Positions 4,644-30,145 of a DNA stretch of 64,000 nt are shown here, piece after piece. The notes under the pieces are model-generated. The model made no database searches. It was not told the origin of the DNA and worked only from the letters and a program-made list of their open reading frames with translations. The translations under genes were made by a program, and so were the position numbers. Source of the stretch: Candidatus Latescibacterota bacterium (GTDB lineage: Bacteria; Latescibacterota; UBA2968; UBA8231). The stretch covers positions 2,304,001 through 2,368,000 of the forward strand of contig CBDETY010000003.1 in NCBI GenBank assembly GCA_965243025.1. Reading direction: 5' to 3'. Positions within the stretch are counted from its first letter, which is position 1. Each line of letters starts with the position of its first letter.

Positions 4644-5504
4644 TTGAAAACGTTCGGATCCGGCGATCACACCTACAGGGCGGTCGAAGGCTGGGGCCGC
4701 GGACCCGAAGGCTGGGACTTCGGCATCGTCTCGTCGATGGCCACCGACTCCGAGGACAACGTCTACGTCATCGACCGCGAGCCGAACCCCGCCATCGTCG
4801 TCCTCGACCGGAACGGCAGGCTGCTGGCCACCTGGGGCCAGGATTTCTTCAAGGTCCCCCACTCGATATGGATCGGGGGGGGCCGCGTCTACATCACCGA
4901 CTGCACCCTGCACACCGCCACCATCCACACCCTTCAGGGGGAGCTGCTGCGGACCCTGGGCACCCCCGGCGAGCCCGGAGAGCCGGGCAAGCCGTTCAAC
5001 TCCCCCACCTGGATGGTGCCCGGCAACCACAACGACCTCTACGTCACCGACGGGTACCGGCAGAACTACGTGCACCGGTTCTCCAGCGCCGGCGAGCTTC
5101 TGTGCACCTGGGGCGGCGACGGCACCGGGCCGGGTCAGTTCGACACCCCGCACTGCGTCCGCGTCGACAGGAACGACCGCGTCCTCGTCCTCGACCGCAG
5201 CAACTCCCGCGTCCAGATATTCGACGCCGAAGGCGGTTTCCTGGAGGCCTGGACCCACCTGTTTCCGGGCAACGATCTCTTCATCGACGGCGACGACACC
5301 GTCTACCTCGCCGAATCGGAGAAGCGGATCAGCATCCTCGACCTCGGGGGTGCCATCATCTGCCAGTGGGGCGAGGAAGGGGAAGAGCCGGGGCAGATCG
5401 TCGACGCCCCGCACGGCATCTGGGTCGACTCGCGCGGCGACATCTACATGTGCGAGGTCCCCTGGACCCCGAACCGGCTGACCAAGTACGAACGCGTGAG
5501 ATAA
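4644..5504 (+). CDS. NHL-repeat protein (peptidyl-alpha-hydroxyglycine alpha-amidating lyase-like), copy 1
   Basis: GPGQFDTPH, DRSNSRVQIFD, PHGIWVDSRGDIY repeats; TTG start. Confidence 0.85.
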   Translation: MKTFGSGDHTYRAVEGWGRGPEGWDFGIVSSMATDSEDNVYVIDREPNPAIVVLDRNGRLLATWGQDFFKVPHSIWIGGGRVYITDCTLHTATIHTLQGELLRTLGTPGEPGEPGKPFNSPTWMVPGNHNDLYVTDGYRQNYVHRFSSAGELLCTWGGDGTGPGQFDTPHCVRVDRNDRVLVLDRSNSRVQIFDAEGGFLEAWTHLFPGNDLFIDGDDTVYLAESEKRISILDLGGAIICQWGEEGEEPGQIVDAPHGIWVDSRGDIYMCEVPWTPNRLTKYERVR

Positions 5505-7499: not shown

Positions 7500-7682
7500 G
7501 CCGCGGGCTTCGCCGGCTGCGAACCGCCCCAGTCCGTGCAGGCGACGTTCACCTGCAATCCCGGGCAGGCGATATCGGTCGCTTTTCCGAAGCGCCCTCA
7601 GGCTGCGGCCGCTCCCCAAGCCGGGCAGGGCCCTCCCCTTTACCGGACAGTCAGGAACGGCCCCGGCCTTTGCCCTCGCTGG

Positions 7683-8801
7683 CTAAACACCGTCCTCGCC
7701 GTCGGTCAGCCAGTCGAGCGAGAAGCGGGCGAAGATCGTCCGCGGCCCCATCCACAACCAGTAGAGCAGTCCGATCTCGTTGTTGGCCAGCACGGTCAGG
7801 CAGGAGTAGGCCACCGGCCCCTCGTAGATCAGCCTGGCGACCGGCCACGTCTTCCCCTCGTCGTAGCTGAGCTTGACCGTCATCCTTTCGCGCGCCGTGC
7901 TCGCCGGGTTGGAGAACAGGATGCGGCTCCTGCCGCCGTCTTGTGCGAAGGAGTAGCGGATCGAGCAGCCCTGGCAGTGCGAGTCGACGAGCTCCTCGTT
8001 GCAGACCATCTCCGACCAGGTGTCGCCGCCGTCGCCGCTGTGCGCCATGCCGCGGCACTTGGGCCCGGTGTACTGCCGCATGTTGAGCTGCAGCGAGCCG
8101 TCCTCGAGCTCGACCACGTGGCACTCGTCGGTGTCGGGGGGCAGGCTGCCGCCGACCTTCCAGGTCTCCCCGCGGTCGTCGCTGTAGAAGACGTGCGAGT
8201 GCTGGGCGTGGTGGATGCCGCCGTGCTCGAAGTAGTCGAGGAAGGGCTCGACCCGCTCGCTGTGGTCGCAGGGGATGAGGATGCGGCCCTTGTGCGGCTC
8301 CCGCTGCTTCTGGATTCCCGCCCCGGGACCGCAGGCGTAGAACCCCCAGCCGGGGCGCCTCACCTGCTCGGTGATGTCGCGCGGCGGCGACCAGGTGGCC
8401 CCGTCGTCGTGGTAGTCGCTGTGGATGGCCTTGACCTGGTTGTCGTTTGCGAACACCCCGTCGCGGACCTTCTCCCGCTCCTGGTGGTTGTAGGTCAGCC
8501 AGATGGCCCCGGAGACCCGGTCGACGACGGCGCAGGGGTTGGTGATCTGCTTCCCCCGCGGGGACTCGGCCAGCAGCTGCAGGCCGCCCCAGGTGCGGCC
8601 GTTGTCGAAGCTGCGCTTGAGGACGATGTGGGAGGTGTAGCGCTCCTGCGGGGTCTTGCGGTTCTCCCGCCACGCCGACTCGCAGAAGGCGAGGAGCGTC
8701 CCCTTCCTGCTGGTGACGATGGAGGGGACTCCATACTCATCGAACCCTTCCTCCCCGTCGACGAAGACATCGGTCTCGAAAAGTCCATCTGTCGTGCTCA
8801 T
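7683..8801 (-). CDS. Sialidase-like (GH33/BNR) protein with non-canonical motifs
   Basis: Asp-boxes SFDNGRTW, SDDRGETW, SGDGGDTW, SYDEGKTW; AYS tyrosine; start MSTTDG after GAAAGGA. Confidence 0.8.
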   Translation of the reverse strand: MSTTDGLFETDVFVDGEEGFDEYGVPSIVTSRKGTLLAFCESAWRENRKTPQERYTSHIVLKRSFDNGRTWGGLQLLAESPRGKQITNPCAVVDRVSGAIWLTYNHQEREKVRDGVFANDNQVKAIHSDYHDDGATWSPPRDITEQVRRPGWGFYACGPGAGIQKQREPHKGRILIPCDHSERVEPFLDYFEHGGIHHAQHSHVFYSDDRGETWKVGGSLPPDTDECHVVELEDGSLQLNMRQYTGPKCRGMAHSGDGGDTWSEMVCNEELVDSHCQGCSIRYSFAQDGGRSRILFSNPASTARERMTVKLSYDEGKTWPVARLIYEGPVAYSCLTVLANNEIGLLYWLWMGPRTIFARFSLDWLTDGEDGV

Positions 8802-8986
8802 GGAATCGATCCTTTCAGTTGGTGCCGTGGCAGTCGTCCCAGGGTCGTGCGGAACATCGGGCAAAATACAACCTGATCGGGACGACTCCGACAGTCAGTG
8901 CCCCCGGCGACTCCGGGGCCCACCTCGCATCGTCAGCAGCCGGAAGGGGAAGGGTCGAAGGTTCGTTCCCCGCCGCTTTCATGCGC

Positions 8987-10882
8987 TCAGGCGGCTCGTC
9001 CGTTCTGCACAGGTGAGGCGGTCAGCTCGAGGGCGCCGCCGATCTCGACCTCGATGTCGAGGCTGGCGGCGCCTTTGTCGACGGGAAGCTGCAGGCTCCG
9101 CCGCTCCTCGAGGAAGCGGTCTCGAACCCCCGCCTTCAGCCGCCCGGCCTGCCACCCCTCCAGCCGGCAGCAGAGCCGGGTCCGGCTGCTGCCGTTGAGT
9201 ATCCACAGGCGCCGCACCTGCGGCGGCAGCTCGAAAACCCCGGGTGCATCCGGCGTGAAGATCCCCCACACCCCCTCTTCCCCCTTGCAGATGGAGAACA
9301 GCGAGTGGTGGGCATCGGCCCCCAGAACCCGGTGGCGGCCGAACAGCAGCAGGTCCCGGTGCTCGCGGTACCACCCGAGCCAGGCGCGAACCGCGCGCCG
9401 GTGCTCCCGAGGAAGGGCGCGCAGGTCCATCGACAGCATGGGGACGGCGCTGGTGACCAGGCTGGCCATGAAGCGGGCGACGTTCTCCACCGGCTCCTGC
9501 GGCAGCCAGTAGGCGGGGTCGGTGTGCGGGGCGACGTTGCCTTCGCGGCCGGCCCCGGGATCGAGGATACAGCTCCTCAGGCGGGTGCACATGCGGCGGA
9601 TGTGGTCGCCGTCGAAGGGGGCGTCCTGGGCGCGGTGGCTGGTGGCGAAGGGGCGCGTCGCCAGGGTCGAGTAGTTCATGCGGAACTCGATCAGGGCGTC
9701 GGGGCGCACCGCCGTGATCGAGCGGTGTATCCCCGCGAGCAGCTCCCGCACCGCTTCGCCATACTCCTCGATGTCGTGGGCGTGCGCCCCCTGGCAGGGC
9801 AGGGCGGCGCGCTCCATCAGGGGATCGATGAAGTCGGTCTTGAGGCCGTCGACCGGGTAGGTGCGCAGCAGGTGCCCGACCATGCGGGCGGCATAGGCGC
9901 GCACCCGCGGGCTGCGCGGGCAGAGGAACTGCTCGGGGTTCTCCTGCCCCTGCGGGTGAAACAGGTGCCCGGCCACGAACGGCTCCCCGGCGATCTCGCC
10001 GAGGCGGAAGACCGGCGCGCACCAGAGCAGGATTTTCAGGCCGGCCTCCTGCACCTGGCGGGCGAGCCCGCCCATGTCGGGGAACTTGCTCTCGTCGGCA
10101 ATGTAGTGGCCGGTCTCCTCGTCGAAATGGTCGCGCACGAACCAGCCGTCGTCGACGATGATCGACCCGAACCCCCAGTCCCTCAGCAGCGGCGCCATGC
10201 CGAGGATGTAGGCGGCGTCGACGTTCCCCTTGATCCCGTACCAGGAGCACCAGACCGGGTCCCAGGCCGCCGCCGGTGCCCCGGCGATCCGCACGCGGTG
10301 GAAGCGGTCGTGCTCGCGGGCGAAGGCGCGCACCGCGTCGAAGAGGTGGCGCGGGACACGAGACAGGTAGATGCCGTCCCGCCACTCGGAGGTGCTGAAG
10401 GAAGGGCGCTTCAGCTCCACCGCCGAGTCCTCGTCGTAGCAGCTCTGGCGGATGTCGGCAACGCGGACGTGGTCCATGAAGCCGATGCAGAAGCGGTTGG
10501 CGTCGTCGCGGTTGAGCAGGGCGATGAAGGGGAAGGACCAGGTGGCGAAGGTGCGCTCCTCCACCCCCCAGGGCAGGCTGATCAGGTCGGTCTTGCCGAT
10601 CGCCTCGTGGAGGGCCGGCACGAACACGCGGTGCAGGTCGACCGCCGGCACCCCGGTCGAGACGGTGCAGTCCACGACCTCGAAGGGGGCGCCGTCGCGG
10701 CGGCGCAGCGACCAGCCCAGGAGCCGGCTGTCCGCATCGGGGGCGGCGACCTCGGTTCCCCACTCGTAGAGGCCGCCTGCTCCCTGCCCCGGGGAGACCG
10801 GGTCGAACCCCTCGACGGGGGGATCCGTTTCGATCGATACGGTCAGTGTCAGACCGGCGAAATCGAAGGTGTGGGGCATCAT
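8987..10882 (-). CDS. Alpha-galactosidase (GH36-like)
   Basis: WCSWY, IVDDGWF, KFPD, DGLKTDF, LIEFR. Confidence 0.8.
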   Translation of the reverse strand: MMPHTFDFAGLTLTVSIETDPPVEGFDPVSPGQGAGGLYEWGTEVAAPDADSRLLGWSLRRRDGAPFEVVDCTVSTGVPAVDLHRVFVPALHEAIGKTDLISLPWGVEERTFATWSFPFIALLNRDDANRFCIGFMDHVRVADIRQSCYDEDSAVELKRPSFSTSEWRDGIYLSRVPRHLFDAVRAFAREHDRFHRVRIAGAPAAAWDPVWCSWYGIKGNVDAAYILGMAPLLRDWGFGSIIVDDGWFVRDHFDEETGHYIADESKFPDMGGLARQVQEAGLKILLWCAPVFRLGEIAGEPFVAGHLFHPQGQENPEQFLCPRSPRVRAYAARMVGHLLRTYPVDGLKTDFIDPLMERAALPCQGAHAHDIEEYGEAVRELLAGIHRSITAVRPDALIEFRMNYSTLATRPFATSHRAQDAPFDGDHIRRMCTRLRSCILDPGAGREGNVAPHTDPAYWLPQEPVENVARFMASLVTSAVPMLSMDLRALPREHRRAVRAWLGWYREHRDLLLFGRHRVLGADAHHSLFSICKGEEGVWGIFTPDAPGVFELPPQVRRLWILNGSSRTRLCCRLEGWQAGRLKAGVRDRFLEERRSLQLPVDKGAASLDIEVEIGGALELTASPVQNGRAA

Positions 10883-10990
10883 GCTCCTCCCGGCAGGGGC
10901 CCGGGGTTGGCCACCCGCGCCCCGCTGACATCATCGTTGCGTTCGCCCCCCGGAAAATGCCAAACGGATGTCCATGGGGCGGGACTGCCC

Positions 10991-11776
10991 TCAGCCCACG
11001 ACCGGCCAGGCGCCCCGGATGCTGCCCTCGTGGCGAACCAGGTCCCCGAAACCGTCCGACTGCGGATCGGGCGTCACCGGTTTCTCCCCGTCGAGATAAA
11101 GCATCCCCACCTCCCCGGGAGGCAGGGAATCCACCAGTTCGCGGGCCTCTTCGAGGGCATTCAGCCACTTCCTTTTCAGGATCCCCAGATCGAGGGGCTC
11201 CCGCAGGTCCAGGCGATCGAGGTCGGCCTGGGCGTAGGCCGCGTGGCGCCCCGCGTGCTCGAGCAGGAACCCGGGAGTGAACCCAGGGTCCTTTCCGCAG
11301 GCGGCCCAGGCCAGCGAGCCGAGGTGCAGGTAGGAGCCGTGGAGGTGAAGGATGTCGACGAAGTCGCGGATCTCCTGCCTGCCCGCCAGGGCCAGAACCT
11401 TGTTGACCGCGGCGTCGGCATGGTGCAGGCGGTACCCGCACTGGACGTCTTCCACAACCGGGAAGAAGCGGAAGGCGCTGTCCTGCGCCCACTCGATCCG
11501 CAGCTGCTCCCCTTCCGCCGACAGGACCGCGCGGTAGAAGGCCGGGGTGCGCAGCAGCCACTTCAGCTCGAAACCCGCCTCGCGCAAGGTCGTTGCATCC
11601 GCTTCCGCGCACAGGGCCACGCTGTCGGCGAGGTCGTGGAACAGGTCGAGATCCCCGGAGAAGCGGGGCGTATCCCGTTCCCGATGGAGGACCGTGGCCC
11701 CGGCCAGGTAGCTGTCGGGACTGCGGTTCGCGGCGATGGTCCTGAGCGCCCGCGTCTGGATCGGGGTCAGGGGCAC
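10991..11776 (-). CDS. AbiEii/AbiGii-family nucleotidyltransferase toxin
   Basis: YLAGATVLH..RFSGDLDLF, NKVLALAGR..RDFVD; GTG start overlaps the end of the upstream small ORF. Confidence 0.75.
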   Translation of the reverse strand: MPLTPIQTRALRTIAANRSPDSYLAGATVLHRERDTPRFSGDLDLFHDLADSVALCAEADATTLREAGFELKWLLRTPAFYRAVLSAEGEQLRIEWAQDSAFRFFPVVEDVQCGYRLHHADAAVNKVLALAGRQEIRDFVDILHLHGSYLHLGSLAWAACGKDPGFTPGFLLEHAGRHAAYAQADLDRLDLREPLDLGILKRKWLNALEEARELVDSLPPGEVGMLYLDGEKPVTPDPQSDGFGDLVRHEGSIRGAWPVVG

Positions 11777-12042
11777 AGTCTTGCCGCGAGAAGGAAACCC
11801 CGGCGGCCACCGTGCTGCCGCAGGCCGCGGGCAACCTCGGGTACGTCCTCCAGGGTGACCTTCAAGTCGGATGGCATGTACCAGAAGCATTGCGCGTGGA
11901 AGTCGCGGAAGGCGCGGCGGGCTTCGCGGACCCGGACCATGTCGAGGGCATCCTCCGAGGACAGGTGCCGGCGGCTCTTCCTGCCGCCTTTGCGCCCGAT
12001 CTCCGCCAGCCAGGCGCTCACGTTTGTTGAAGGGGTATCCAT
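11767..12042 (-). CDS. Small putative antitoxin (N-terminal KGG-like motif, C-terminal CFW domain)
   Basis: About 91 aa ORF overlapping the toxin start; AEIGRKGG and AQCFWY motifs; alternative start 12051. Confidence 0.65.
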   Translation of the reverse strand: MDTPSTNVSAWLAEIGRKGGRKSRRHLSSEDALDMVRVREARRAFRDFHAQCFWYMPSDLKVTLEDVPEVARGLRQHGGRRGFLLAARLCP

Positions 12043-12059
12043 TGTCAACATATCCTTAT

Positions 12060-12074
12060 CATAAGCCGCTTATG
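12060..12074. promoter_or_regulatory. Palindromic operator upstream of the TA pair
   Basis: Perfect CATAAGC-C-GCTTATG inverted repeat in an AT-rich stretch just upstream of the antitoxin start. Confidence 0.55.
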
Positions 12075-12189
12075 TTAAAGCAAGCCCAATCCCGTCCCGC
12101 CCGCAAGAGGACCCGATGCAACTGTCCGACCTCGATGCCCGGCGGTTCGCACCGCGAAACCAACCGCCCGGACGGCCGGAGCGCCCCTA

Positions 12190-13074
12190 CTATTCCACCG
12201 AGTTGGCGGCGATGAACGCCTCCATCTCGCGAAATGCCCGGTCGCGCTTCTCCCGCAGATCGTCCCGGGGGCAGATCGCCAGGCAGGTGGTCAATCCGCC
12301 GTCCACGGTGATCTCCTGGCCGGTGACAAAACGGGATTCGTCGGAGGCGAGGTAGACCGCGAGGTAGGCGATGTCGACCGGTTCGCCGACCCTCTCCAGG
12401 GGCTGGAAACTCCAGTGCTCGATGCGGCTGCGGTCCCCGAAGCGCTCGACGAACTCGGCCCGGGCTTCGGGCTTGAGGTTTTCCGGAACCAGGTCGCGGT
12501 CGCCGCCGAGGTAGATGGCCCCGGGACTGATGACGTTGACGCGGATGTTGAAAGGGGCCAGCTCCGCGGCCAGGGCCCGGGTGCCGCCGATGATTCCGGC
12601 CTTTGTGGTGGCGTACACCGTGGCGCCCGGACTGCCCTCGATCCCGTGGACGGAGGCGACGTTGACGATCGCCCCCCGGCCCCGCGCCTTCATCAGGGGG
12701 ACCGCCAGCTGACAGCCGAGGTGCATGCCGCGCAGGTTGGTGTCCATCAGGCGGTCGTAGTCCTCGTCCTTCACCTGCTCGACCGGATCGCCGATGCCGA
12801 TGCCGGCGTTGTTGACGAGGATGTCGAGGCCGCCGAAGCGCTCTTTCACGGCGTCGAACAGGCCCTCCATCTGCCCGCGCACCCCGACATCGGTCGGGAC
12901 CGCCAGGACCTCGCCGCCCGCCTCTTCGATTTCGGATTTCACCCGTTCCAGCTTCTCGGCGGAGCGCGCCGCGATGGCGAGCCTCGCCCCGTGCCCGGCG
13001 AACAGCATGGCGATGCCGCGGCCGATGCCCTGGCCGCCCCCGGTAATGACGGCGATCCTGTCCTTGAGTCTCAT
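12190..13074 (-). CDS. SDR family oxidoreductase
   Basis: [28 protein letters not shown]. Confidence 0.92.
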
Positions 13075-20770: not shown

Positions 20771-21039
20771 GCGGTATTCCTGTTGGATGGTGGGGCTGAT
20801 TCGGGGCAACCGCTGCGGGCGGTGAAAGTCGCGACAACGGCGCGGGGGAAGCAATCGGGCCGGCAGCAAGGCGCAAGCGAGCCGAAAAGATAAGGCGGGC
20901 AACGGCAACTGGAGAGAAGGAGGCAGCCGCAACCCTGAGAAATGGCAGCACCGCCCGGGTTTATGAAGACACTACCCGGCGGAGGAGCCTGTTGGAAAGG
21001 AGATCTCCGGATTGGTCAGTTTGCTGCCCGGTCTCGCGA

Positions 21040-21180
21040 TCAGGGCGTTTCTTCGATGTCGTCGACCGCCTCTCCCACCACCTCCATGCCGTCCTGCCCG
21101 GCAAGGAACTCCCTGACGGTTTCCCGCAGCATTTCATGGTCGTCTTCCAGTACTACTCGGATGGTCGTGATTCGGGTCAC
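21040..21180 (-). pseudogene. Truncated NarL-family response-regulator fragment (46 aa)
   Basis: VTRITTIRVVLEDDHEMLRETVREFLAGQDGMEVVGEA then stop; aligns to the N-terminus of the regulator at 28461-29096; GAAGGA RBS. Confidence 0.7.
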
Positions 21181-21239
21181 TCCTTCGCCGCGGCAACAGA
21201 GGCAATATCGGGCACGCCACTCCTGCCCGGGAACTCTCA

Positions 21240-23984
21240 TCAGTGCCGCACGAGCTGATAATCCCGCGCGTACACGAAGTCGTCGTCGTGGTCGCTGTTG
21301 TGACATTCCAGACAGGTCCGTTCCGACGGAAGGCGCCGGACCGTCTCGCTGGAAGGACGCTCGATATGGATGCTTCCAGGTCCGTGACAGACCTCGCACT
21401 GCACGTTTGCCAGGCTGCGGTCCGGTTCGAGAATCGAGAACCCGCTGTCGCGGTTCAGCCCGGCCACGTGGCATTTCACGCACTTGGAAAACTGGTGGCG
21501 GTGCGCGTCGAGCAGGGTCGTATAGGCATCGGCGTGCCGGGTCGACTGCCACTGTTCCCACTGCGCCGAGTGGCAGGTACGGCATTCCTGCGTCCCCACG
21601 TACTTCCTCTCGTCGTGAACCGGGTCCCACTCGAAGAGCGGCGGGATGTTTCCTTCCAGCAGCTCCTCCTGTTCGGCCACGGACCGGTAGTAGGAATCGA
21701 GGTAGGCTTTCATGTCCTCGTCTTCGCGCATCTCGTACAAGGCCAGCAGGTAGTTGCCCTCGAACGAGGTGAATCGGCCCTCTCCATCTATGCCGATATC
21801 GACGTGATGCAGGCCGTACACGTCTGCGTTCGCGTAGATGACCAGCACGTCGTCGAGGAAGCCGTACATCGATTCAGTCCGCTTTCCCCCCTGGCCGTCG
21901 GCGCGTATCACGTCGAGGGCGGGGGCGTGGTGCCCGGTGGTGATGACCAGGTCCAGGGCCGGGAACTCCTGCACCAGGTCATGGACGAGGCCGGTGTTCA
22001 GCTCGCCGATGACCCCGACGAAGTCCGCCTGCTCCCTCAGCCCGGGCAGGTATTCCCGTACCGTCTCCTTCGGGTCGGCTGTCTCCAGGTCCCGGGTGTT
22101 GTCTTCATACAGCGAGGGCTCGATGGCCACCGTCGCCTGCAGCAGACCAATGAAAGCGATCGTGTACGGTCCCACCTCGATGGCGTACGTCGGCGCGCCG
22201 ACGAGGGAACCCTCGTGGTACAGGTTGGCGTTTATCAGGGGCACGGGACTGTTGCGGGCCTGGGTCCGAAGAAACTCGCTGCCGTGGTAGGTCTCGTTGC
22301 GCGCGATGACGGAAAAGCCGTACTCCATCCGCCTCAGCCCTCCGAGGTAGGTCGCCAATTCGCTTTCCGTCAGGGCGTCCATTGCCGGAACGTCCTGTTC
22401 GTGGGGAAAGGCGTTTCCGGCATCGATGACGGCCACGCTCCTGCGCCTTTGTTTTATCTGGTCGATGAGGGTGGCGCGGCGGGTGATCCCGCCCGACATG
22501 TTGGACTTGCAGCCGCAGGCTTCGAGAAAGCTCCTCGTTTTTCCGGTCACGATCAGGGTGATCGTGTCTACCGCGGTCTCCGACCGCGACCACGGCAGGC
22601 GGGGCGGTTGATCACCGGGCACCGGACCGTCGGCGTGCCACAGAGGCTCCGGAGGAGGCGAACCGGGGCCGGGGTTGGTGCGTTCGTACAGCGCCGACAG
22701 AAGATCGGCGCCGGCGACCCGCTCGATCGCGCCTCCCAGATCGACGCCCTCCCGTCGCCAGTAGGCGTACTCCAGAACGTCCTGCAGATCCTGTTCCCCG
22801 TCCGTGCTCCTGGAGATCTGCATATCGAGGTAATGGGCGAGGGCCAGGCCGCTGTGCCTTATCAGCGACTCTTTGGCGGCGCTGTGCGTGTAGTAAGTCT
22901 CCGGGACGATTCCCTTGCTGAAGTGGGACACCCGGAAGCGGTTGTGATTCCTGTACGCTTCGTACAGGTACGGCTCCAGATCGGAAATGACCCCGTGCTT
23001 CCGCAGGCCCTGGAGACCCAGGTACATGCTGGCCCCTTCCACGAACCAGAAGTCGGATGCCTGGGCCAGTTCCATGCGGTGGGGGGCGTGCCGCAGCCAT
23101 CGGTAGGCGATGCGGGTGGCCACCGAGAGCCACCTTCCCGGGGTGGCCGGCTCCATTTCCCCGGCTTGGCCATAAGACGTGCTTGGAATGTGAATGCTCA
23201 TTCCATCCGCCGTCTTGGGGGTCAGAATGACCGTGTACGGTTCTGGAACCGGCGCCTGCAGGGCCCTCGTCATGTACTCGTAGAGGCTCCATGCTCTTCT
23301 GGCCAGCTCCTCCTGCCGTGCGCTCGACCACCCGTCGTACAGCACAACGCGCACGGGAGCCGTCCCGATGGTCATCTCTCGCGCGGTCAATGCGCCCAGG
23401 GCTACTGCGCCGTTGACCAGATCCTCCAGGCCGGTGCCGTACAGGCGCGGTTCGTACGTGCCGGCTTCACCCTTGGCCGGGATCCAGGTGGTCTCGACGG
23501 CCCAGCCTCCGGGTCCCTGGATCGAAACCGCAATGTGATCGAACTGCCCATAGGGAACGAGGAAGAGGTTGCGGCCGGAAACGAGATGGAAATCCTCCCC
23601 CAGGTAGCCGCTGACCTCGGTGGAATGGCGCCCGTGCCCGCCGCCGATCGGCCGTCCCGGCCGCACCCGGTACTCGGCGCGCAGCTCGCTGCCCGGCGCC
23701 TTCACGCGGTAGGTCGTCCGGCCGGTGGCCGATACCCGTTGCGCATGCGGAACGGGCCTGGCCTCGGAGTCGCGGAGTTGCAGCCCCGTAACGCCGATGT
23801 ACGGGTCGGCCTCGAAGGCCTGCAGAAAAACGGAATCGGCCTCGATGCCGCTGATCCTCAACCCGACCGCTACCGACTCCGCGTCAGGCGATTCTACTTG
23901 CACTTGGTACGCGAGCCGCAGGCCCGGGTCCGAGCAGGCGGAGAAAAGCAGCACGGCTGCGGGGAGGAAGCGAGAAAGGATCAT
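21240..23984 (-). CDS. Lipoprotein fusion: M61/gluzincin-like domain lacking HExxH, 5'-nucleotidase/metallophosphoesterase-like domain with CGC motif, and tetraheme cytochrome c (c554-like)
   Basis: LFSAC lipobox; WFVEGASMY; LEACGC..SGGITRRAT..DAGN; CRTCH, CVKCH, CEVCHGPGS, CLECH. Confidence 0.75.
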   Translation of the reverse strand: MILSRFLPAAVLLFSACSDPGLRLAYQVQVESPDAESVAVGLRISGIEADSVFLQAFEADPYIGVTGLQLRDSEARPVPHAQRVSATGRTTYRVKAPGSELRAEYRVRPGRPIGGGHGRHSTEVSGYLGEDFHLVSGRNLFLVPYGQFDHIAVSIQGPGGWAVETTWIPAKGEAGTYEPRLYGTGLEDLVNGAVALGALTAREMTIGTAPVRVVLYDGWSSARQEELARRAWSLYEYMTRALQAPVPEPYTVILTPKTADGMSIHIPSTSYGQAGEMEPATPGRWLSVATRIAYRWLRHAPHRMELAQASDFWFVEGASMYLGLQGLRKHGVISDLEPYLYEAYRNHNRFRVSHFSKGIVPETYYTHSAAKESLIRHSGLALAHYLDMQISRSTDGEQDLQDVLEYAYWRREGVDLGGAIERVAGADLLSALYERTNPGPGSPPPEPLWHADGPVPGDQPPRLPWSRSETAVDTITLIVTGKTRSFLEACGCKSNMSGGITRRATLIDQIKQRRRSVAVIDAGNAFPHEQDVPAMDALTESELATYLGGLRRMEYGFSVIARNETYHGSEFLRTQARNSPVPLINANLYHEGSLVGAPTYAIEVGPYTIAFIGLLQATVAIEPSLYEDNTRDLETADPKETVREYLPGLREQADFVGVIGELNTGLVHDLVQEFPALDLVITTGHHAPALDVIRADGQGGKRTESMYGFLDDVLVIYANADVYGLHHVDIGIDGEGRFTSFEGNYLLALYEMREDEDMKAYLDSYYRSVAEQEELLEGNIPPLFEWDPVHDERKYVGTQECRTCHSAQWEQWQSTRHADAYTTLLDAHRHQFSKCVKCHVAGLNRDSGFSILEPDRSLANVQCEVCHGPGSIHIERPSSETVRRLPSERTCLECHNSDHDDDFVYARDYQLVRH

Positions 23985-24016
23985 GCCGGTTTTCTCCTGC
24001 GTTCTCTTTTCCCGTT

Positions 24017-24601
24017 CTATATGGATGGACCGAGAAGCGCTTCGATCACCGCGGCCACACTGTCCGCGGCGGTCACCACCCCGCGCTGCTCCAGGTGGAT
24101 CGTCCCATCGCGAGCGACGAGCACCGACAGGGGAATTCCCTTGTCGACGCCATACTGTCGCAAGAGGCTGGTGTCCGCGGTGGCGGGCATCAGGATCGGG
24201 TAGGGGACCTCGAGGTTCTCGACCCACAGCTCCACCGCGAGACGGGTGGAGGATACGGCTATCCCCCATACATCCAGCCCGCGTTCCCGGTACCGGGTGT
24301 AAAGGTCGTTGAGGACCGGCTGTTCCTCCCGGCAGGGACCGCACCAGGTAGCCCAGAAGTTCAGGAGCAGCACCTTGTCCCGTTGCGCCGGGACCTTCAG
24401 GGTGTCGCCGCCAAGCGAGGCAATAGCAAAGCCGGGAGCTGTTTTGCCGGGCGCTGATTTAGCCGGCGCGGGTGGCTCCTCGGCAGCGGGTGCGCAGGAA
24501 TGCAAACAGGCCGCCAACCCCAGGCATGAGAACGCACGGGCGATTCTGCCGAGCTTTATCCAGGCGGTGTTTCGGGGCGGCCTGTTTTGGCGCGTCTTCA
24601 T
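24017..24601 (-). CDS. TlpA/ResA-family thiol-disulfide oxidoreductase lipoprotein
   Basis: LLNFWATWCGPC, GIP cis-Pro, LHSC lipobox. Confidence 0.88.
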   Translation of the reverse strand: MKTRQNRPPRNTAWIKLGRIARAFSCLGLAACLHSCAPAAEEPPAPAKSAPGKTAPGFAIASLGGDTLKVPAQRDKVLLLNFWATWCGPCREEQPVLNDLYTRYRERGLDVWGIAVSSTRLAVELWVENLEVPYPILMPATADTSLLRQYGVDKGIPLSVLVARDGTIHLEQRGVVTAADSVAAVIEALLGPSI

Positions 24602-24603
24602 TC

Positions 24604-24693
24604 TCAGAACGGATACACCCGGTCGCCGCCATGCCCGAGGACGGAGTCCATGCCGAACAAGGCGATTACGGCTGAAAGAAGGACCACATGCAT
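24604..24693 (-). pseudogene. Truncated fourth copy of the tandem paralog (29 aa)
   Basis: MHVVLLSAVIALFGMDSVLGHGGDRVYPF* near-identical to the starts of the adjacent copies; GGAGG RBS lost. Confidence 0.85.
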
Positions 24694-24701
24694 GGTCAAA
24701 C

Positions 24702-25652
24702 CTATTGCGAGAAACTCGCCTTGATGCGCGCCCACGAGTCGGGTGCGACCGCGGTACCACCACCACCACCACTGTCGACGCCGTTCGCCGAAAGCAGAAT
24801 GCCATCCATCATGACAACGTGGTCCCTAATACGACCCTCATCGTAGTGCCCGACCATATGAGTTTCTCGCGCCCTATTGCTGCCCGGCCCATGGGTGGCA
24901 GGCTCATCGAAATCGCCTACAAACACCTGAAACCCGACAATCCGTCCCGCACTCAGATCCGAGACGACGCTGTTTTCCGGCTCCCTCCGGATCAACAGGT
25001 CGAACGGGGTGACGAAGAACTCGGTGATCCAGACAACTGGATTTTCCCCGACTACGGAGCCGCCACCGTCTCCATAGGGAGGATATCCCCACCAGTTCTC
25101 ATCCCACCACATTTCCAAAACAGACAGGCCAACGTGGGAAGTCTCTCGACGAAGCGGCACAGCGCTGTAGAATTGGGACCCTTGACCCATCAGTCCGGAA
25201 TCTTCCCCCTTGTCGTCACGTCTGGCAACGCTTTCATCCCATCCCGGTGAACCGTCATGATCACCATCGACTTCAATGGAGAGATGATCCTCGCCCTCTC
25301 GGTCAAAATAATTGTCAGACTTTTCATCCTCTCCCACATAAACGTCATCTATGCAGATGGCGCCTACATAGATCCGGTTGGAAGCGTCGTTCCATCCCAG
25401 CCAGATTCGAAAATCGAGGTCGGACGGATTGTATCCCGTCACCCATTTGTCTCGGTCGAACGCCGTGAAGTCCAAGCTCGTGAGGGAAGGCTCCCCGAAC
25501 AGCTCCTCCCAGTCTTCTATGGATCCATCGGTCACGTCGATCGCGTTCTCGTCGGTTATCTCGTAGAACGGATACACCCGGTCGCCCCCGTGCCCGAGGA
25601 CGGGGTCCATGCCGAACAAGGCGATTACGGCTGAAAGAAGGATCACATGCAT
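24702..25652 (-). CDS. Secreted CBM9/DOMON-like protein with C-terminal TAV..SWARIK motif, copy A
   Basis: Signal peptide, DGSIEDW, WLGWN..IYVG, IEVDGDHDG, TAVAPDSWARIKASF. Confidence 0.7.
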   Translation of the reverse strand: MHVILLSAVIALFGMDPVLGHGGDRVYPFYEITDENAIDVTDGSIEDWEELFGEPSLTSLDFTAFDRDKWVTGYNPSDLDFRIWLGWNDASNRIYVGAICIDDVYVGEDEKSDNYFDREGEDHLSIEVDGDHDGSPGWDESVARRDDKGEDSGLMGQGSQFYSAVPLRRETSHVGLSVLEMWWDENWWGYPPYGDGGGSVVGENPVVWITEFFVTPFDLLIRREPENSVVSDLSAGRIVGFQVFVGDFDEPATHGPGSNRARETHMVGHYDEGRIRDHVVMMDGILLSANGVDSGGGGGTAVAPDSWARIKASFSQ

Positions 25653-25661
25653 GACAGCCTC

Positions 25662-26621
25662 CTATTGCGAGAAGCTCGCCTTGATGCGCGCCCACGAGTC
25701 GGGTGCGACCGCGGTACCACCACCACTGTCGATGCCGTTCGCCGAAAGCAGAATGCCATCCATCCAAGTATCGGTGTCACCAATAACGTCACGAAGAGTG
25801 CCTCCGTAATAGCTACCCAACACATGAAGTTTTCCCGCTCTATTTCCACCAGGCCCACTGATTGCCGGCTCGTCGAAATCTCCGATTGACACACGGAACC
25901 CGACAATCTGCTCCGCACCCAGATCCGAGACGAGGCTGTTTTCCGGTTCCTTGCGAATCAACATGTCGAACGGGGTGACGTAGAACTCCGTGACCCAGAC
26001 CACGGGATTTTCTCCGGCGACCGAGCCGCCACCGTTCCCGTATGGAGGGTATCCCCACCAGCTCTCACCTTCAAAAAAGGTCTCGAAAAAAGGAATTCCG
26101 ACGTTTGACGCTTCACGGCGAACCGGTACCCCCGAATAGACTTGCGCCGCCTGACCGTATTTTCCGGAATCGTCGCCTTCGTCAAGATTGACCTCATCCC
26201 ATTGCGGGAAACCGTCATGATCGCCATCAATCATAAGAGTCACCGAATCCTCACCCTGACGCTCCAGGTACTTAAAAGATCTTTCCTCCTCGCCTATGTA
26301 CCTGTCGTCAATGCAGATAGCGCCTATGTAGATGCGGTCGGAAGCCCCGTTCCAGCCCAGATAGATGCGGAAGTCGAGATCGGACGGGTTGTATCCCATG
26401 CTCTCACCACTAAGGAAGTAGGAGTCGAACCCGGTGAAATCCAGGCTCGTGAGGGAAGGCTCCCCGAACAGCTCCTCCCAGTCTTCTATTGTTCCATCGG
26501 TCACGTCGATCGCGTTCTCGTCGGGTATCTCGTAGAACGGATACACCCGGTCGCCCCCATGCCCGAGGACGGGGTCCATGCCGAATAAGGCGATTACGGC
26601 TGAAAGAAGGATCACATGCAT
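25662..26621 (-). CDS. Secreted CBM9/DOMON-like protein, copy B
   Basis: Same motifs as copy A; TAGGAGG stop/RBS coupling. Confidence 0.7.
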   Translation of the reverse strand: MHVILLSAVIALFGMDPVLGHGGDRVYPFYEIPDENAIDVTDGTIEDWEELFGEPSLTSLDFTGFDSYFLSGESMGYNPSDLDFRIYLGWNGASDRIYIGAICIDDRYIGEEERSFKYLERQGEDSVTLMIDGDHDGFPQWDEVNLDEGDDSGKYGQAAQVYSGVPVRREASNVGIPFFETFFEGESWWGYPPYGNGGGSVAGENPVVWVTEFYVTPFDMLIRKEPENSLVSDLGAEQIVGFRVSIGDFDEPAISGPGGNRAGKLHVLGSYYGGTLRDVIGDTDTWMDGILLSANGIDSGGGTAVAPDSWARIKASFSQ

Positions 26622-26630
26622 GGCAGCCTC

Positions 26631-27587
26631 CTATTGCGAGAAGCTCGCCTTGATGCGCGCCCACGAGTCGGGCTTGACCGCGGTGCCACCGCCGTCGATG
26701 CCGTTCGCAGGGAGCAGAATGCCATCCATCCAAGTATCGGTGTCACCTAAAGCGTCACGAACAGTGCTTCCGTGATGGCTACCCAACACATGAGGTTTTC
26801 CCGCAAAGTTTCCACCCGGCCCATTGACAGCCGGCTCGTCGAAATCTCCGATTGTCACTCGGAACCCGACAATCTGCTCCGCACCCAGATCCGAGACGAG
26901 GCTGTTTTCCGGTTCCTTGCGAATCAACATGTCGAACGGGGTGACGAAGAACTCCGTGACCCAGACCACGGGGTTTTCGCCGGCGACCGAGCCGCCACCG
27001 TTCCCGTACGGAGGGTATCCCCACCAGTTCTCACCTTCGAAATAGGTCTCGAAAAAAGGAATTCCGACGGTTGACGTTTCACGGCGGACCGGTACCCCCG
27101 AATAAATTTGCGCCGCCTGATCATGTTTTCCGGAATCGTCGCCTTCGTCAAGATTGACTTTATCCCATTGTGAAGAACCGTCGTGATCGCCGTCAATCAA
27201 AAGAGTCACCGAATCCTCACCCTGACGCTCCAGGTAGCCGAAAGATCTTTCCTCCTCACCTATGTACTCGTCGTCGATGCAGATGGCGCCTATGTAGATT
27301 TGGTCGGAAGCCCCGTTCCAGCCCAGATAAATGCGGAAGTCGAGATCGGACGGGTTGTAATCCATGCTCTCCCCGGAACTCTGGTAAGAGGTAAAACCGG
27401 TAAAATCCAGGCTCGTGAGAGACGGCTCTCCGAAAAGCTCTTCCCAGTCTTCTATCGATCCATCGGTCACGTCGATCGCGTTCTGGTCGGGTATCTCGTA
27501 GAACGGATACACCCGGTCGCCGCCATGTCCGTGGGCGGCGCCGAAGCCGAATAAGGCGATTACGGCTGAAAACAATATGATGCCCAT
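26631..27587 (-). CDS. Secreted CBM9/DOMON-like protein, copy C
   Basis: Start MGIILFSAV after AGGAGG; TAVKPDSWARIKASF. Confidence 0.7.
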   Translation of the reverse strand: MGIILFSAVIALFGFGAAHGHGGDRVYPFYEIPDQNAIDVTDGSIEDWEELFGEPSLTSLDFTGFTSYQSSGESMDYNPSDLDFRIYLGWNGASDQIYIGAICIDDEYIGEEERSFGYLERQGEDSVTLLIDGDHDGSSQWDKVNLDEGDDSGKHDQAAQIYSGVPVRRETSTVGIPFFETYFEGENWWGYPPYGNGGGSVAGENPVVWVTEFFVTPFDMLIRKEPENSLVSDLGAEQIVGFRVTIGDFDEPAVNGPGGNFAGKPHVLGSHHGSTVRDALGDTDTWMDGILLPANGIDGGGTAVKPDSWARIKASFSQ

Positions 27588-27625
27588 GGCTCCTCCTCGT
27601 CTGGTGTTTAGGACTCGGGAAATGG

Positions 27626-27657
27626 AAGCAGGGGGCGCTGCGCGGCGCCCCCTGCTT
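27626..27657 (-). terminator. Strong hairpin (terminator/attenuator or mRNA-stabilising stem) downstream of the peptide gene
   Basis: AAGCAGGGGGCGC-6 nt-GCGCCCCCTGCTT perfect 13-bp stem; T-run on plus strand, partial U-tract on minus strand. Confidence 0.7.
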
Positions 27658-27735
27658 TTGTGTGCAGGCGATCCAATCATCAGAGGGTCCGAACCCTCAC
27701 CGATCATTGAATCGGCTTGCTTCGTCGCTCTCTTG

Positions 27736-28026
27736 CTAATCGCAGAGGCTGTCGTGGCAACCACCACCACCACCATCGCAAGGCTGGCAGTTCAATGCGA
27801 GAGTCTCGGGGATGCAATCTCCGCTACCTGCGCAGATCTGGTAGTCGCAGGAGGCCGCCGCCGGGGGCACCAGCAAGGGCTCCAGGGCTGCGTACGGCCC
27901 CGAGTTGGTCTCCGTCCCGGTGAACGGGATGAAGGCGAACACCACCCACACGGCCAAGGTGGCGACGAACGCCGCCAGACTGCGCGGCAGGATGAGCCGC
28001 GGCAACGTCGCGATGAGGTCTTTCAT
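27736..28026 (-). CDS. Small membrane-targeted precursor with Cys-rich C-terminal core (7 Cys in 38 aa); possible longer start at 28224
   Basis: MKDLIA.. hydrophobic helix, LLVPPAAA|SCDYQICAGSGDCIPETLALNCQPCDGGGGGCHDSLCD*; in-frame GTG at 28224 has AAGGAGGT SD. Confidence 0.7.
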   Translation of the reverse strand: MKDLIATLPRLILPRSLAAFVATLAVWVVFAFIPFTGTETNSGPYAALEPLLVPPAAASCDYQICAGSGDCIPETLALNCQPCDGGGGGCHDSLCD

Positions 28027-28308
28027 GGTCTTTCGTTCTCCAGTTGAGAATGATTGCGAGTTTTGGCTCCTCTTGGGTGCCCACGGGGCAGCGGCGTGCG
28101 CGTTACCGTTTTTCTTCTCCTTTCCCATGCCCTGGATTTTCTCCCTCCCAGCTCCCGGTGTAGCCTTCGGGATGCCGCGTCGTATCGCGGTGCGGTGTAC
28201 TTCCTGTCGGGCGTTGACGGCCACGGGACGTGACCTCCTTTCCGAGAGCCTTTGGGGGCCTTTCGTTTGTCTGAGAACGAAGATCGCACCGGACAGACGG
28301 CTCCGGTA

Positions 28309-28352
28309 TCACCCGAACGGGTACATTTTTGTCACCCGAAAGGGTACATTTT
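28309..28352. promoter_or_regulatory. Tandem 21-bp direct repeats, each with an ACCC-N4-GGGT palindrome; likely response-regulator boxes
   Basis: TCACCCGAACGGGTACATTTT (28309) and TCACCCGAAAGGGTACATTTT (28332), 20/21 identical, 23-bp period. Confidence 0.7.
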
Positions 28353-28460
28353 CCGAAAAATGGGGGGATTTGCCCGGAAAAACCGGGTTTGCGGGGCTCG
28401 GGACTGCCTGCGGAATTGGCGCCGAACCCGGAAAGGGAGTGACTGCCGCGAAGAGGGCAG

Positions 28461-29096
28461 CTACAGCGAGGTGAGCCCGGTGCTGATCGCGTACCTGGTC
28501 AAAGCGGCAATGCTGTGCAGGTCGAGCTTGTCCATGATGCGTTTCCGGTACGTGTTGACGGTGTTATCGCTCAAGTTCAGTCGTTTGGCAATTTCCGCTG
28601 TCTTCAAGCCCTTGCTGATGAGCCGTACCACCTCGCGCTCCTGCGCGCTCAGTTTCGGGTGGCCGGCAAGGGTCTGCACCTGGTCGTACACGGCCCCGGC
28701 CAACTCCGGGCTCAGGTAGGTGCCGCCGGCGAGGGCCGCCCGGGCGGCCCGCATCACCTCGGCCCCGGTCCGGGCGGCCCCTTTGACCACGTACCCCGAG
28801 GCCCCCGCCTCCAGCATGCCGGCGACGAAGTGCGGTTCTTCGTGCATCGACAGGGCTACCACCTTCACCTCCGGGGCCTGGGCGAGGATCTGGCGCGTCG
28901 CCTCCACCCCGCTCAGGTCGGGCAGGGCTACGTCCATGACCACGATGTCGGGCCGGCAGGCCGCGGCCTGCTCCACCGCGGTGCGCGCGTCCCCGGCTTC
29001 GCCCACCACCTCGAACCCGTCGTCCTGCGCGAACCTGGCCCTCAACGCCTCGCGCATCAGCTCGTGATCGTCCACCAGCAAAACCCGGATCGTCAT
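28461..29096 (-). CDS. NarL/LuxR-family response regulator
   Basis: LLVDDH, VMDVALP, LSMH, GYVVK, C-terminal LuxR HTH (LSAQERE..IAKRLNLSDNTV). Confidence 0.95.
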   Translation of the reverse strand: MTIRVLLVDDHELMREALRARFAQDDGFEVVGEAGDARTAVEQAAACRPDIVVMDVALPDLSGVEATRQILAQAPEVKVVALSMHEEPHFVAGMLEAGASGYVVKGAARTGAEVMRAARAALAGGTYLSPELAGAVYDQVQTLAGHPKLSAQEREVVRLISKGLKTAEIAKRLNLSDNTVNTYRKRIMDKLDLHSIAALTRYAISTGLTSL

Positions 29097-30145
29097 CGGG
29101 AACTCTCCTTTTTCTCGAGCAGCGAGGAAGGAATCGCCAGCACGCAACGCGTGCCCTGCCCCGGCGTCGATTCGATGTCGAAGGAGCCGCCGGCCTGCCT
29201 CAGGCACTCGCCGATGCTGAACAGGCCGAAACCGGTCCCCTGCCGGGGGTCCTCCGGAGAAGGATCGAAGCCGCGGCCGCGGTCGGCGACCGCCAGGCTC
29301 AGTCCGGTCCCGTCGCGGCGCAGGGACACCGCGGCCGCGTCCGTGCCGGCGTGCCGGACGACGTTGAGCAACAGCTCGCGAAGGCAGCGGAACAGCGTAG
29401 CTCGCAGACCTTCCTCCGCCACCTCGCAGTCCCCCTCGCATACCAGGCTGACCCGCAGCCCGTGCTCCTTCTCGAGCTGCCCGGCCAGCGAGTGCAGAGC
29501 GGCGACGAGCCCGTAGTAGTGGAGCTCGGGCGGACTGAGATCGAAAACCAGCGTGCGCAGTTCTTCCATCGTCCGCTCGAGCAGGCCGTCTATGTCGTGG
29601 AGCAGGGTCTGGCGTTCCTTCTCGTCCGCCTGCCGCAGGTCCTCGATCTTCATCCGCGACGCGGCCAGGGTCTGGCCGGCGCGGTCGTGCAAGTCGGCGG
29701 CAATGCGGCGGCGCTCGCGGTCTTCGACGGCGACCAACTCCGCCACCATGCGCCTTGCCTCGGTGACGTCGCGGACGATGCTCTGGTAGCCGCGGACGCT
29801 GCCGTCGGCGGCGCGCCGCACCACGTTGGTCAACAGGCAGTCGAGGCGGCGCCCGTCCCGGGTTACGAAAACGACCTCGTAGTCGCGGACGTACCCTTCG
29901 CGCTCGATCCTTTCCTGGTAGCGGGCGCGGTCTTCGGGATTGGCGTAGACGCCGAGGATGTTCATGCCGAGGAACCGTTCATGGGGCCAGTCGAACATTT
30001 CGCTCGCCGCGTGGTTGGCTTCGAGGATGGTCCCGTCGCGCGCGGTGACTATCATGGCGTCGTGGCACTCCTCGAACAGCTGGCGGTAATCCTCCGCGTT
30101 CAGCCGACCGCTCCCTTTACTCCGCTGTCGCTTCTGCCCACTCAT
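29093..30145 (-). CDS. Cytoplasmic PAS-domain sensor histidine kinase (HisKA_3 type)
   Basis: PAS/PAC (..RDVTE), ERRRIAADLHD H-box, ELLLNVVRHA, DRGRGF, GFGL; no transmembrane segment. Confidence 0.92.
   Translation of the reverse strand: MSGQKRQRSKGSGRLNAEDYRQLFEECHDAMIVTARDGTILEANHAASEMFDWPHERFLGMNILGVYANPEDRARYQERIEREGYVRDYEVVFVTRDGRRLDCLLTNVVRRAADGSVRGYQSIVRDVTEARRMVAELVAVEDRERRRIAADLHDRAGQTLAASRMKIEDLRQADEKERQTLLHDIDGLLERTMEELRTLVFDLSPPELHYYGLVAALHSLAGQLEKEHGLRVSLVCEGDCEVAEEGLRATLFRCLRELLLNVVRHAGTDAAAVSLRRDGTGLSLAVADRGRGFDPSPEDPRQGTGFGLFSIGECLRQAGGSFDIESTPGQGTRCVLAIPSSLLEKKESSR

Follow-up and report, generated by a model that had tools for sequence, protein, structure and literature searches.

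The locus analyzed here raises the question of whether a 96-codon open reading frame, in which a hydrophobic N-terminal part is joined to a short cysteine-rich tail, is a genuine gene and, if so, what becomes of its product. The frame lies within a 64,000-nt stretch of the genome of a Candidatus Latescibacterota bacterium (hereafter, the window, to which all positions refer).

Build of the Small Gene and Its Product

The small gene starts with an ATG at 28026-28024, ends with a TAG at 27738-27736 and encodes, on the minus strand, a protein of 96 aa (MKDLIATLPRLILPRSLAAFVATLAVWVVFAFIPFTGTETNSGPYAALEPLLVPPAAASCDYQICAGSGDCIPETLALNCQPCDGGGGGCHDSLCD). The following parts were distinguished:

27736-28026, minus strand: whole small gene, 96 codons plus TAG (homologs exist)
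28037-28041, minus strand: GGAGA, a Shine-Dalgarno-like candidate 10 nt ahead of the ATG (read from the sequence)
27922-27981, minus strand: hydrophobic signal-anchor or h-region, codons 16-35 (SLAAFVATLAVWVVFAFIPF), preceded by positive charges (AF2 helix 17-31)
27853-27921, minus strand: conserved linker or pro-region, codons 36-58, G-x-Y-[SA]-x-L-[DE]-x-L-V ... A-x-A (alignment)
27739-27852, minus strand: acidic, Gly-rich Cys core, codons 59-96, with the family framework C-x4-C-x5-C-x8-C-x6-9-C-x4-C (alignment, GC3)

A longer frame from a GTG at 28224 was dropped, since every homolog begins with MK(D/E). The preliminary description had reported a hydrophobic N-terminal stretch, a spacer, a PPAAA-SC site and a 38-aa acidic, Gly-rich tail with seven Cys, and all of these are present as stated. 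The basic residues K2, R10, and R15 lie ahead of the hydrophobic stretch (approximately residues 16-35, i.e., 20 residues), which is followed by the spacer and then by PPAAA-SC. The tail (SCDYQICAGSGDCIPETLALNCQPCDGGGGGCHDSLCD) has its seven Cys spaced 4-5-8-2-6-4, includes six acidic residues and seven Gly, and is devoid of Lys and Arg. The lower-GC codon usage claimed for the core relative to the leader is likewise found, as GC3 falls from 0.95 (codons 1-58) to 0.63 (codons 59-96) in a genome with 65.4% G+C. This shift of composition at the leader/core boundary is compatible with recombination there, or with a separate history of the whole block at about 21000-28500. AF2 models the small protein poorly (overall pLDDT 54.5, near 70-79 in helix 17-31 only), and for this reason neither a fold nor a disulfide map can be derived from it.

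A Genuine Gene of a Rare Family

High-GC DNA yields many long spurious frames, and it might be argued that this ORF arose by chance or is non-coding. The GC3 of its frame (0.82) is the highest on that strand, the other two frames having 0.54-0.60, and its homologs are conserved, with invariant Cys columns, in-frame indels and, in one related genome (G004), a leader dN/dS of 0.08. The chance-ORF reading is effectively refuted by the homologs, the profile matches and the dN/dS.

A BLASTP-type word-indexed search gave six proteins at E ≤ 1 among eight candidates, all of them of 91-97 aa and 68-86% identical to the query. A nine-sequence profile was then compared with 1.84 billion representative proteins, resulting in 17 matches at E ≤ 1e-3 (six of them at E ≤ 1e-10), among which P0130, P0139, and P0143 are shortened forms. 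One candidate, P0132, a 2962-aa Ig/cadherin-repeat protein that matched profile positions 58-81 fifteen times, was judged spurious. Within the phylum, five of 168 genomes gave a match at E ≤ 1e-3; four are convincing (G000, which is the genome of the window, G001, G002, and G004), as in the fifth (G143, E 8.2e-4) the frame reading shows neither the leader nor the Cys pattern. Copies are thus present in same-genus and same-family genomes as well, while G000 itself carries a single one, and separate leader-only and core-only HMMs retrieved nothing further from it.

Related copies were also found on contigs of four further sequencing runs, and the labels of runs with related contigs include sponge and marine metagenome. 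Those of run X12, a sponge metagenome by its label, are approximately 88-94% alike over the ORF, which may serve as a lead. In X12, the gaps listed within the ORF total 3 nt for the core and 6 nt for the N-terminus; the listed gaps of run X7 sum to 3 and 4 nt, the piece concerned having six gap letters altogether. Among the variant places listed inside the ORF, 8 of 15 fall on codon position 3 (a manual count and a weak indicator, as the region 27400-28500 has 151 variant places beyond those listed).

The small protein has no match in Pfam, NCBIfam or PADLOC, and the profile search of PDB sequences gave just three antibody matches at chance level (E 2.9-5). In the Protein Atlas, it reaches unnamed clusters only, with a best score of 0.86, which is a lead at most. 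No description of such a bacterial family, including the combination of Latescibacteria, sponges and cysteine-rich proteins, was found in the literature searched. The small ORF is, therefore, a genuine gene of a rare, unannotated family.

A Conserved Leader and a Variable Core

It had been proposed that a conserved leader is combined here with a hypervariable core, and the pairwise identities of the homologs bear on this directly. Among 208 pairs with less than 60% overall identity, the identity was 0.37 for the N-terminus with the hydrophobic segment, 0.41 for the linker, 0.26 for the core and 0.12 for the core without its Cys columns. In 23 pairs with at least 60% overall identity, the corresponding values were 0.83, 0.83, 0.62, and 0.55. 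The proposal therefore holds at a distance and only weakly among close relatives: hypervariability of the core is seen at greater distance only, because the closest homologs keep a non-Cys core identity of 0.55. With this limit, the small protein has the conserved leader and variable core that are expected of RiPP precursors.

The same asymmetry is visible in the nucleotide sequences. In the paralog pair of G004, the leaders are 0.87 identical (dS 0.53, with the low dN/dS given above), and the cores are 0.47 identical, with synonymous sites saturated. The leader pair of the window and G002 is unlike the G004 pair, as its dN/dS of 0.86, obtained on few sites, speaks against simple purifying selection. 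A sliding comparison of the window with the same-genus G002 locus L002 showed 73-85% nucleotide identity across 28028-27882. Both the core with the intergenic spacer behind it and the region upstream are only about 40% identical; in the downstream gene, the identity was mostly 30-63%, with one stretch of 75-82% at 27023-26874.

In the alignment of 22 sequences, L48 of the linker is invariant, and Y45 and A58 are conserved in at least 90%. Just before the first Cys, an A/V/G-x-A/S motif (AAA, AEA, VEA, ADA, ASA, or GKA) was read by eye in 20 of the 22 sequences, the two exceptions being PATHN and VANSN. The boundary between conserved and variable parts, this small-x-small motif and the drop in GC3 all coincide.

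Genes in the Neighborhood

Downstream of the small gene, on the same strand, five genes follow:

26631-27590, minus strand: exported CBM9/DOMON-fold paralog 1, 319 aa, ending in DSWARIKASFSQ (fold evidence from paralog 2)
25662-26621, minus strand: CBM9/DOMON-fold paralog 2, 319 aa (AF2 pLDDT 80.9; Foldseek)
24702-25652, minus strand: CBM9/DOMON-fold paralog 3, 316 aa (ORF list, family scans)
24017-24601, minus strand: TlpA/ResA-like thiol:disulfide oxidoreductase with WCGPC and a lipobox-like LAAC, start chosen by us (Pfam, NCBIfam)
21240-23963, minus strand: 907-aa lipoprotein with an M61-N-like region, an UshA-like part with CGC and four CxxCH hemes of cytochrome c554 type (Pfam, NCBIfam)

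The three proteins of about 318 aa have no match in Pfam or NCBIfam. By fold, they are similar to CBM9 and to two heme-b DOMON subunits, NxrC and EbdC: the best Foldseek match of paralog 2 was 1i82_A (CBM9; E 2e-7), and further ones were 7nwo (2.7e-6), NxrC 7b04 (4.5e-5), and EbdC 2ivf_C (3e-3). This family is subject to a very large paralog expansion in its own genome, where its profile matches 118 stop-to-stop ORFs (60 aa or longer) at E ≤ 1e-5. Moreover, a C-terminal [ST]W[AGS]x[ILVM]K[AS]x... tail, for which SAVESVSWGRIKASLE is typical, is present in 85 ORFs, of which 80 match the CBM9/DOMON-fold family. The tail, modeled as a short helix after a Gly-rich, low-confidence linker, looks like a sorting or anchoring tag, although it fits no known class.

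The TlpA-like protein matches Pfam AhpC-TSA (1.8e-17) and Redoxin (1e-16), as well as NCBIfam ResA (2.2e-26, below the cut-off). In the lipoprotein, the M61-N-like region lacks HExxH, with A-Y-R-W-L at that position, and the UshA-like part carries an invariant E-A-C-G-C-K motif, in which C-G-C corresponds to the CxU motif of selenoproteins with Cys in place of selenocysteine; the match of the lipoprotein to NCBIfam NF041198 is strong (1.4e-63), yet below the cut-off. UshA-like CxU proteins and TlpA-family UGC proteins appear in selenoprotein tables contained in PMC13188914 and PMC9312934, and the two genes of this locus are Cys versions of these types. A complex predicted for lipoprotein residues 11-907 and small-protein residues 36-96 scored 0.01 against a mark of 0.32, which is evidence neither way.

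The G+C content of the 21-28.5 kb block is 0.52-0.66 (single 300-nt windows reach 0.70) and that of its flanks is 0.70-0.75. Outside the block, there are genes for a GH127 glycosidase, oxidoreductases, aminotransferases, an aldehyde dehydrogenase, FolD, and SerRS, and none for peptide maturation or export among the flanking genes.

This gene content bears on the RiPP-like reading of the preliminary description, according to which, in its enzymatic sense, the core would be modified (with thioether, sactionine, heterocycle etc.) by a dedicated maturase. The leader/core architecture with its hypervariable core would suit a RiPP precursor, and so would the six conserved Cys in a short core: SCIFF/ranthipeptide precursors also have six Cys in a short C-terminal stretch. 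These precursors, to our knowledge, have no signal peptide and always lie beside a radical-SAM maturase, whereas Pfam scans of the ORFs at 12.2-34.1 kb revealed no radical-SAM, YcaO, LanB/C/M, RRE or C39/ABC genes. None appeared in the ORF listings of the related loci either (where the Pfam scan covered selected ORFs of L017 and L018). Furthermore, a hydrophobic Sec-type leader would carry the core away from cytoplasmic maturases. The enzymatic RiPP reading is, consequently, highly improbable.

Genes That Travel with the Small Gene

The seven copies read in their genomic context show the following orders:

Window: small gene, three CBM9-like paralogs, TlpA-like, lipoprotein, all on the same strand
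G002, loci L002/L020: small gene, CBM9-like, TlpA-like, lipoprotein
G002, locus L016: shortened small gene, CBM9-like, TlpA-like, lipoprotein
G002, locus L017: small gene amid four CBM9-like genes, redox pair absent
G004, locus L018: TlpA-like, lipoprotein, small gene, 1025-aa protein, IS fragment, second small gene, 988-aa protein
G001, locus L021: small gene isolated amid mobile-element remnants

The neighborhood is conserved: the genes for the TlpA-like protein and the CGC/tetraheme lipoprotein lie within a few kb of five of the seven copies, namely those of the window, G002 L002/L020, G002 L016, and both copies of G004 L018 (where the gene order differs), the copies without redox neighbors being G002 L017 and G001 L021. 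It should be stressed that, because the genomes are related, these linkage counts are not independent. A CBM9-like gene is located directly downstream of the small gene in four of the seven copies; as the genome of the window contains about 118 such ORFs and one small gene, the CBM9-like family is not a general partner.

Viewed from the side of the lipoprotein, full-length orthologs within the genome family f1 were found, among 41 relatives, only in G000, G002 (two copies), and G004. A further full-length lipoprotein, 30% identical, is encoded in G035, at a locus without the small gene or a TlpA gene. In the large protein collection, 6 of 12 full-length lipoprotein homologs come from contigs equal in size to those of small-protein homologs (2376817, 26435, 10252, 7950, 10211, and 366143), which we take to be identical contigs; they include four distant pairs, i.e., P0137/P0147, P0135/P0148, P0138/P0150, and P0140/P0155.

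The proteins of about 1000 aa in G004 (L018, G004:C1:2474000-2489000, at 5964-9038 and 10016-12979) are each preceded by a small gene, and the two units are split by a transposase-like fragment. They show weak matches to SlpA beta-barrels (E 6.8e-5 and 3.7e-3, below the cut-off). Look-alikes of one of them in the Atlas are found in unnamed clusters, mostly labeled Candidatus Latescibacterota (a lead). The idea that the 1025-aa protein is a relative of the CBM9-like family was rejected, as hhalign found no relation (probability 0.6%). The second lipoprotein copy of G002 (G002:C1:2859019-2861735) consists of overlapping pieces in different frames, covering residues 1-122 and 103-907, possibly owing to a frameshift or an assembly error.

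The Cysteine Framework

The framework of the core comprises six cysteines. In the seven closest sequences, C60, C65, C71, C80, C90, and C95 are invariant, and C83 (of CQPC) occurs in three of them. Throughout the alignment of 22 sequences, there are six Cys in 16 members, seven in 4, five in 1 and four in 1. The most frequent spacing, 4-5-8-7-4, is shown exactly by 3 of the 22. Between the fourth and fifth conserved Cys, the members with six or seven Cys (20 in all) have a gap of 6-10, when sub-gaps are summed where a seventh Cys intervenes. The odd Cys number and the free thiol that had been deduced from this one sequence are thus not a trait of the family, since C83 is present in only three of the seven closest sequences, and the idea applies to this lineage alone. 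A knottin-like fold had been suggested too. Canonical knottins have the spacing C-x3-7-C-x3-8-C-x0-7-C-x1-4-C-x4-13-C, for which the C3-C4 and C4-C5 gaps found here are too long.

Six thiols could also ligate Cu, Zn or Fe, e.g., in a mini-protein acting as a chaperone that feeds the heme/CGC lipoprotein, with the TlpA-like protein keeping the thiols reduced. TlpA-family proteins are reductants for copper-site assembly (TlpA-ScoI/CoxB), the core is acidic and Cys-rich, and in some members a His precedes or follows a Cys, all of which would agree with metal binding. On the other hand, CxxC/CxC pairs, the usual metal spacing, occur in 4 of the 22 members only, so that conserved pairs of the metallothionein type are lacking, and the core alignment has no conserved His or Met column. 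An even number of conserved Cys in an exported domain favors disulfides, and we consider a metal-binding role very unlikely.

The Transcription Unit and Its Upstream Region

Several features surround the small gene:

27664-27720, minus strand: first RNA hairpin 3′ of the stop codon (156-nt fold, z -4.31)
27626-27657, minus strand: second hairpin with a 13-bp G+C stem and a 6-nt loop, terminator-like though lacking a clean U run (inverted repeat and fold)
28309-28352, plus strand: tandem pair of 21-nt repeats, both containing a CCCGAAnGGG palindrome, located between the genes for the regulator and the small protein (repeat scan)
28461-29093, minus strand: NarL/LuxR-type response regulator, start chosen by us (Pfam)
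29093-30145, minus strand: soluble PAS-HisKA_3 histidine kinase (Pfam)

The 21-nt motif has two matches in the window against 0.21 expected, and it is absent from the 28 other loci compared. It may be the binding site of the adjacent LuxR-type regulator. A peptide-pheromone reading was rejected: by its Pfam domains, the kinase has no membrane segment, and the kinase/regulator pair is absent upstream of the G002 copies.

On the 3′ side, 145 nt separate the small gene from the next one, and the two hairpins formed by this spacer are strong (z -4.31); UCCAUUUCC comes after the second one (27657-27626). The consensus scan of 27300-28600 called neither a promoter nor a terminator. At the equivalent place, the L002 copy of G002 has a canonical terminator with a U run (z -3.29), and strong hairpins also occur 3′ of the copies in L017 (z -6.20), L018a (z -3.25), and L021 (z -4.54), with none after L018b (z 0.13) or the shortened L016 copy (z -0.09), which makes five of seven copies with a strong 3′ hairpin. 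Judging from these folds, the small gene probably yields a small transcript of its own that ends by termination or attenuation, a pattern often seen in small structural or precursor genes with abundant products.

Probable Export, Topology, and Possible Processing

The small protein has the basic n-region and the hydrophobic h-region of a Sec signal peptide; the h-region has 20 residues in this member and 15-23 across the family. Because positive charges precede and acidic residues follow this segment, an N-in/C-out topology with a periplasmic Cys domain is the natural reading. The product is very likely exported, in agreement with the secreted product proposed before.

The fate of the exported protein is less evident. 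Signal peptidase I acts at small-x-small sites located 3-7 residues past the h-region. Here, 22-25 residues separate the h-region from the conserved A-x-A, too many for cleavage to be predicted by the usual rule, and an h-region of 20 residues would be just as suitable for a permanent membrane anchor. Nor does the h-region lead straight into a lipobox (L-[AS]-[GA]-C): the first Cys comes about 25 residues later, and the residue before it varies among members (S, A, H, N, T, D, P, V, G, or I). Neither a protease nor an exporter dedicated to this protein was identified. Release or retention of the core is the main difference between the two readings weighed below.

The explanation that we place first, albeit tentatively and a little short of calling it probable, is that of a Sec-exported, disulfide-bonded mini-protein of the precursor type, which is released at the A-x-A site and works with the TlpA-like protein and the CGC/tetraheme lipoprotein. 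The basic N-terminus and the hydrophobic segment would insert the protein N-in/C-out via Sec, followed by the conserved 23-residue linker (GxYSxLDxLLV...AxA), and the six conserved Cys in the C-terminal 35-40 residues would most likely make three periplasmic disulfides. The leader, serving export and recognition, would be strongly constrained, and the core would be free to vary between its Cys until it is, probably, released at the A-x-A boundary. The leader/core asymmetry, the six-Cys framework, the boundary motif and the small, apparently terminated transcript all match the build of a secreted disulfide-rich precursor, and the released core may have a biological activity. The TlpA-like thioredoxin and the CGC-motif lipoprotein would oxidize or proofread the core disulfides; such a role is proposed because both conserved neighbors are of thiol/selenol redox types, and it is deduced from the neighborhood only.

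Alternatively, the protein may never be cleaved and may stay as a bitopic inner-membrane protein, whose helix and linker dock or tether the periplasmic lipoprotein or the CBM9-like proteins, with the disulfide knob as a tolerant cap or as a thiol partner or substrate that undergoes redox cycling with the TlpA-like and CGC/heme proteins. The h-region of 20 residues is the best-modeled part of the protein, the distance of the A-x-A from the membrane exceeds the usual signal-peptidase geometry, and the helix with the linker is the most conserved part of the locus, as an interface would be. An anchor would also accord with the tight association with the redox lipoprotein and with the position directly upstream of a CBM9-like gene (in four of seven copies), although a single small gene among some 118 CBM9-like ORFs in the genome argues against the latter partner. 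Against an anchor, six Cys kept amid an otherwise random core would rather be expected in the precursor of a secreted peptide, an uncleaved protein would have no obvious reason to keep the boundary A-x-A in 20 of 22 members, and the core has been lost in two lineages (G002 L016 and P0143/run X5) with the downstream genes remaining. We regard an uncleaved anchor as a serious, if somewhat unlikely, alternative; if the core were merely an anchored cap, the locus would represent a modest new membrane-protein family.

The preferred reading of a released mini-protein can be extended to a pathway in which a bacterial cysteine-bridged peptide is folded oxidatively under the guidance of its leader: the degenerate, peptide-binding M61-like part of the lipoprotein would hold the leader, CGC would oxidize the thiols and pass the electrons to the four hemes, the TlpA-like protein would proofread the product and an acidic core of about 38 aa would be released. 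As a whole, this pathway seems quite unlikely. If true, bacteria would have a route of their own to the kind of disulfide-rich peptides that have been isolated from sponges so far and credited to the animal, given that related contigs occur in the runs labeled sponge and marine metagenome. The TlpA-like gene may, instead, serve only the tetraheme lipoprotein.

Relation to Known Systems

Exported disulfide-rich mini-proteins with a leader are, as a general kind, already known. New are the bacterial setting, the long, anchor-like leader with its distant A-x-A and the coupling to a CxC/tetraheme lipoprotein. Precursors composed of a signal, a leader and a hypervariable Cys core are well known in animals and plants and have hardly been described in Gram-negative-type bacteria; here, this architecture is present in a rare bacterial family covered by no domain library.

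In Sec-dependent unmodified (class II-type) bacteriocins, small exported peptides need only leader removal and disulfides. The small exported build is common to both; however, the scans of the ORFs at 12.2-34.1 kb showed neither an immunity gene nor an ABC/C39 exporter nor a double-glycine leader, and an unusually long distance would separate the h-region from the cut site.

There is an architectural likeness to animal cysteine-bridged prepropeptides (sponge barrettides, cone-snail toxins), which show the same order of signal, conserved leader and hypervariable core with a fixed Cys framework. For barrettides, a recent review (PMC12426817) describes precursors with a signal peptide, a leader and a Cys-rich core, in which the discarded parts are conserved and the cores hypervariable. 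The likeness concerns architecture alone, and sequence similarity is not claimed. Those precursors are eukaryotic and have ER signals, whereas the protein analyzed here is bacterial and has a 20-residue h-region, a 23-residue linker and thiol/heme redox neighbors.

With TlpA/ResA/CcmG and their clients (ScoI, CoxB, and apocytochrome c), the locus shares a gene for a membrane-tethered thioredoxin-fold protein that adjoins a gene for an exported Cys protein, and the multi-heme protein encoded in the same cluster also needs such a reductant. The difference lies in the putative client, here a six-Cys mini-protein outside the known families. If the coupling is functional, it would provide the first client or function for the UshA-like redox family, and it would amount to a compact, genetically encoded system for producing disulfide-rich peptides.

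Loss of the Core in Two Lineages

The Cys core was lost independently twice, i.e., in G002 L016 and in P0143/run X5, with the start of the leader kept and the neighbors staying in place. In G002 L016 (G002:C1:3473000-3483000, at about 5086-5360), the deletion of the core extends into the spacer. In run X5, position 27551 is joined to 27946, and the 33 intervening letters (minus strand, by eye) spell the junction of P0143. In this 60-aa protein, leader codons 1-27 run into the signal peptide of a CBM9-like gene.
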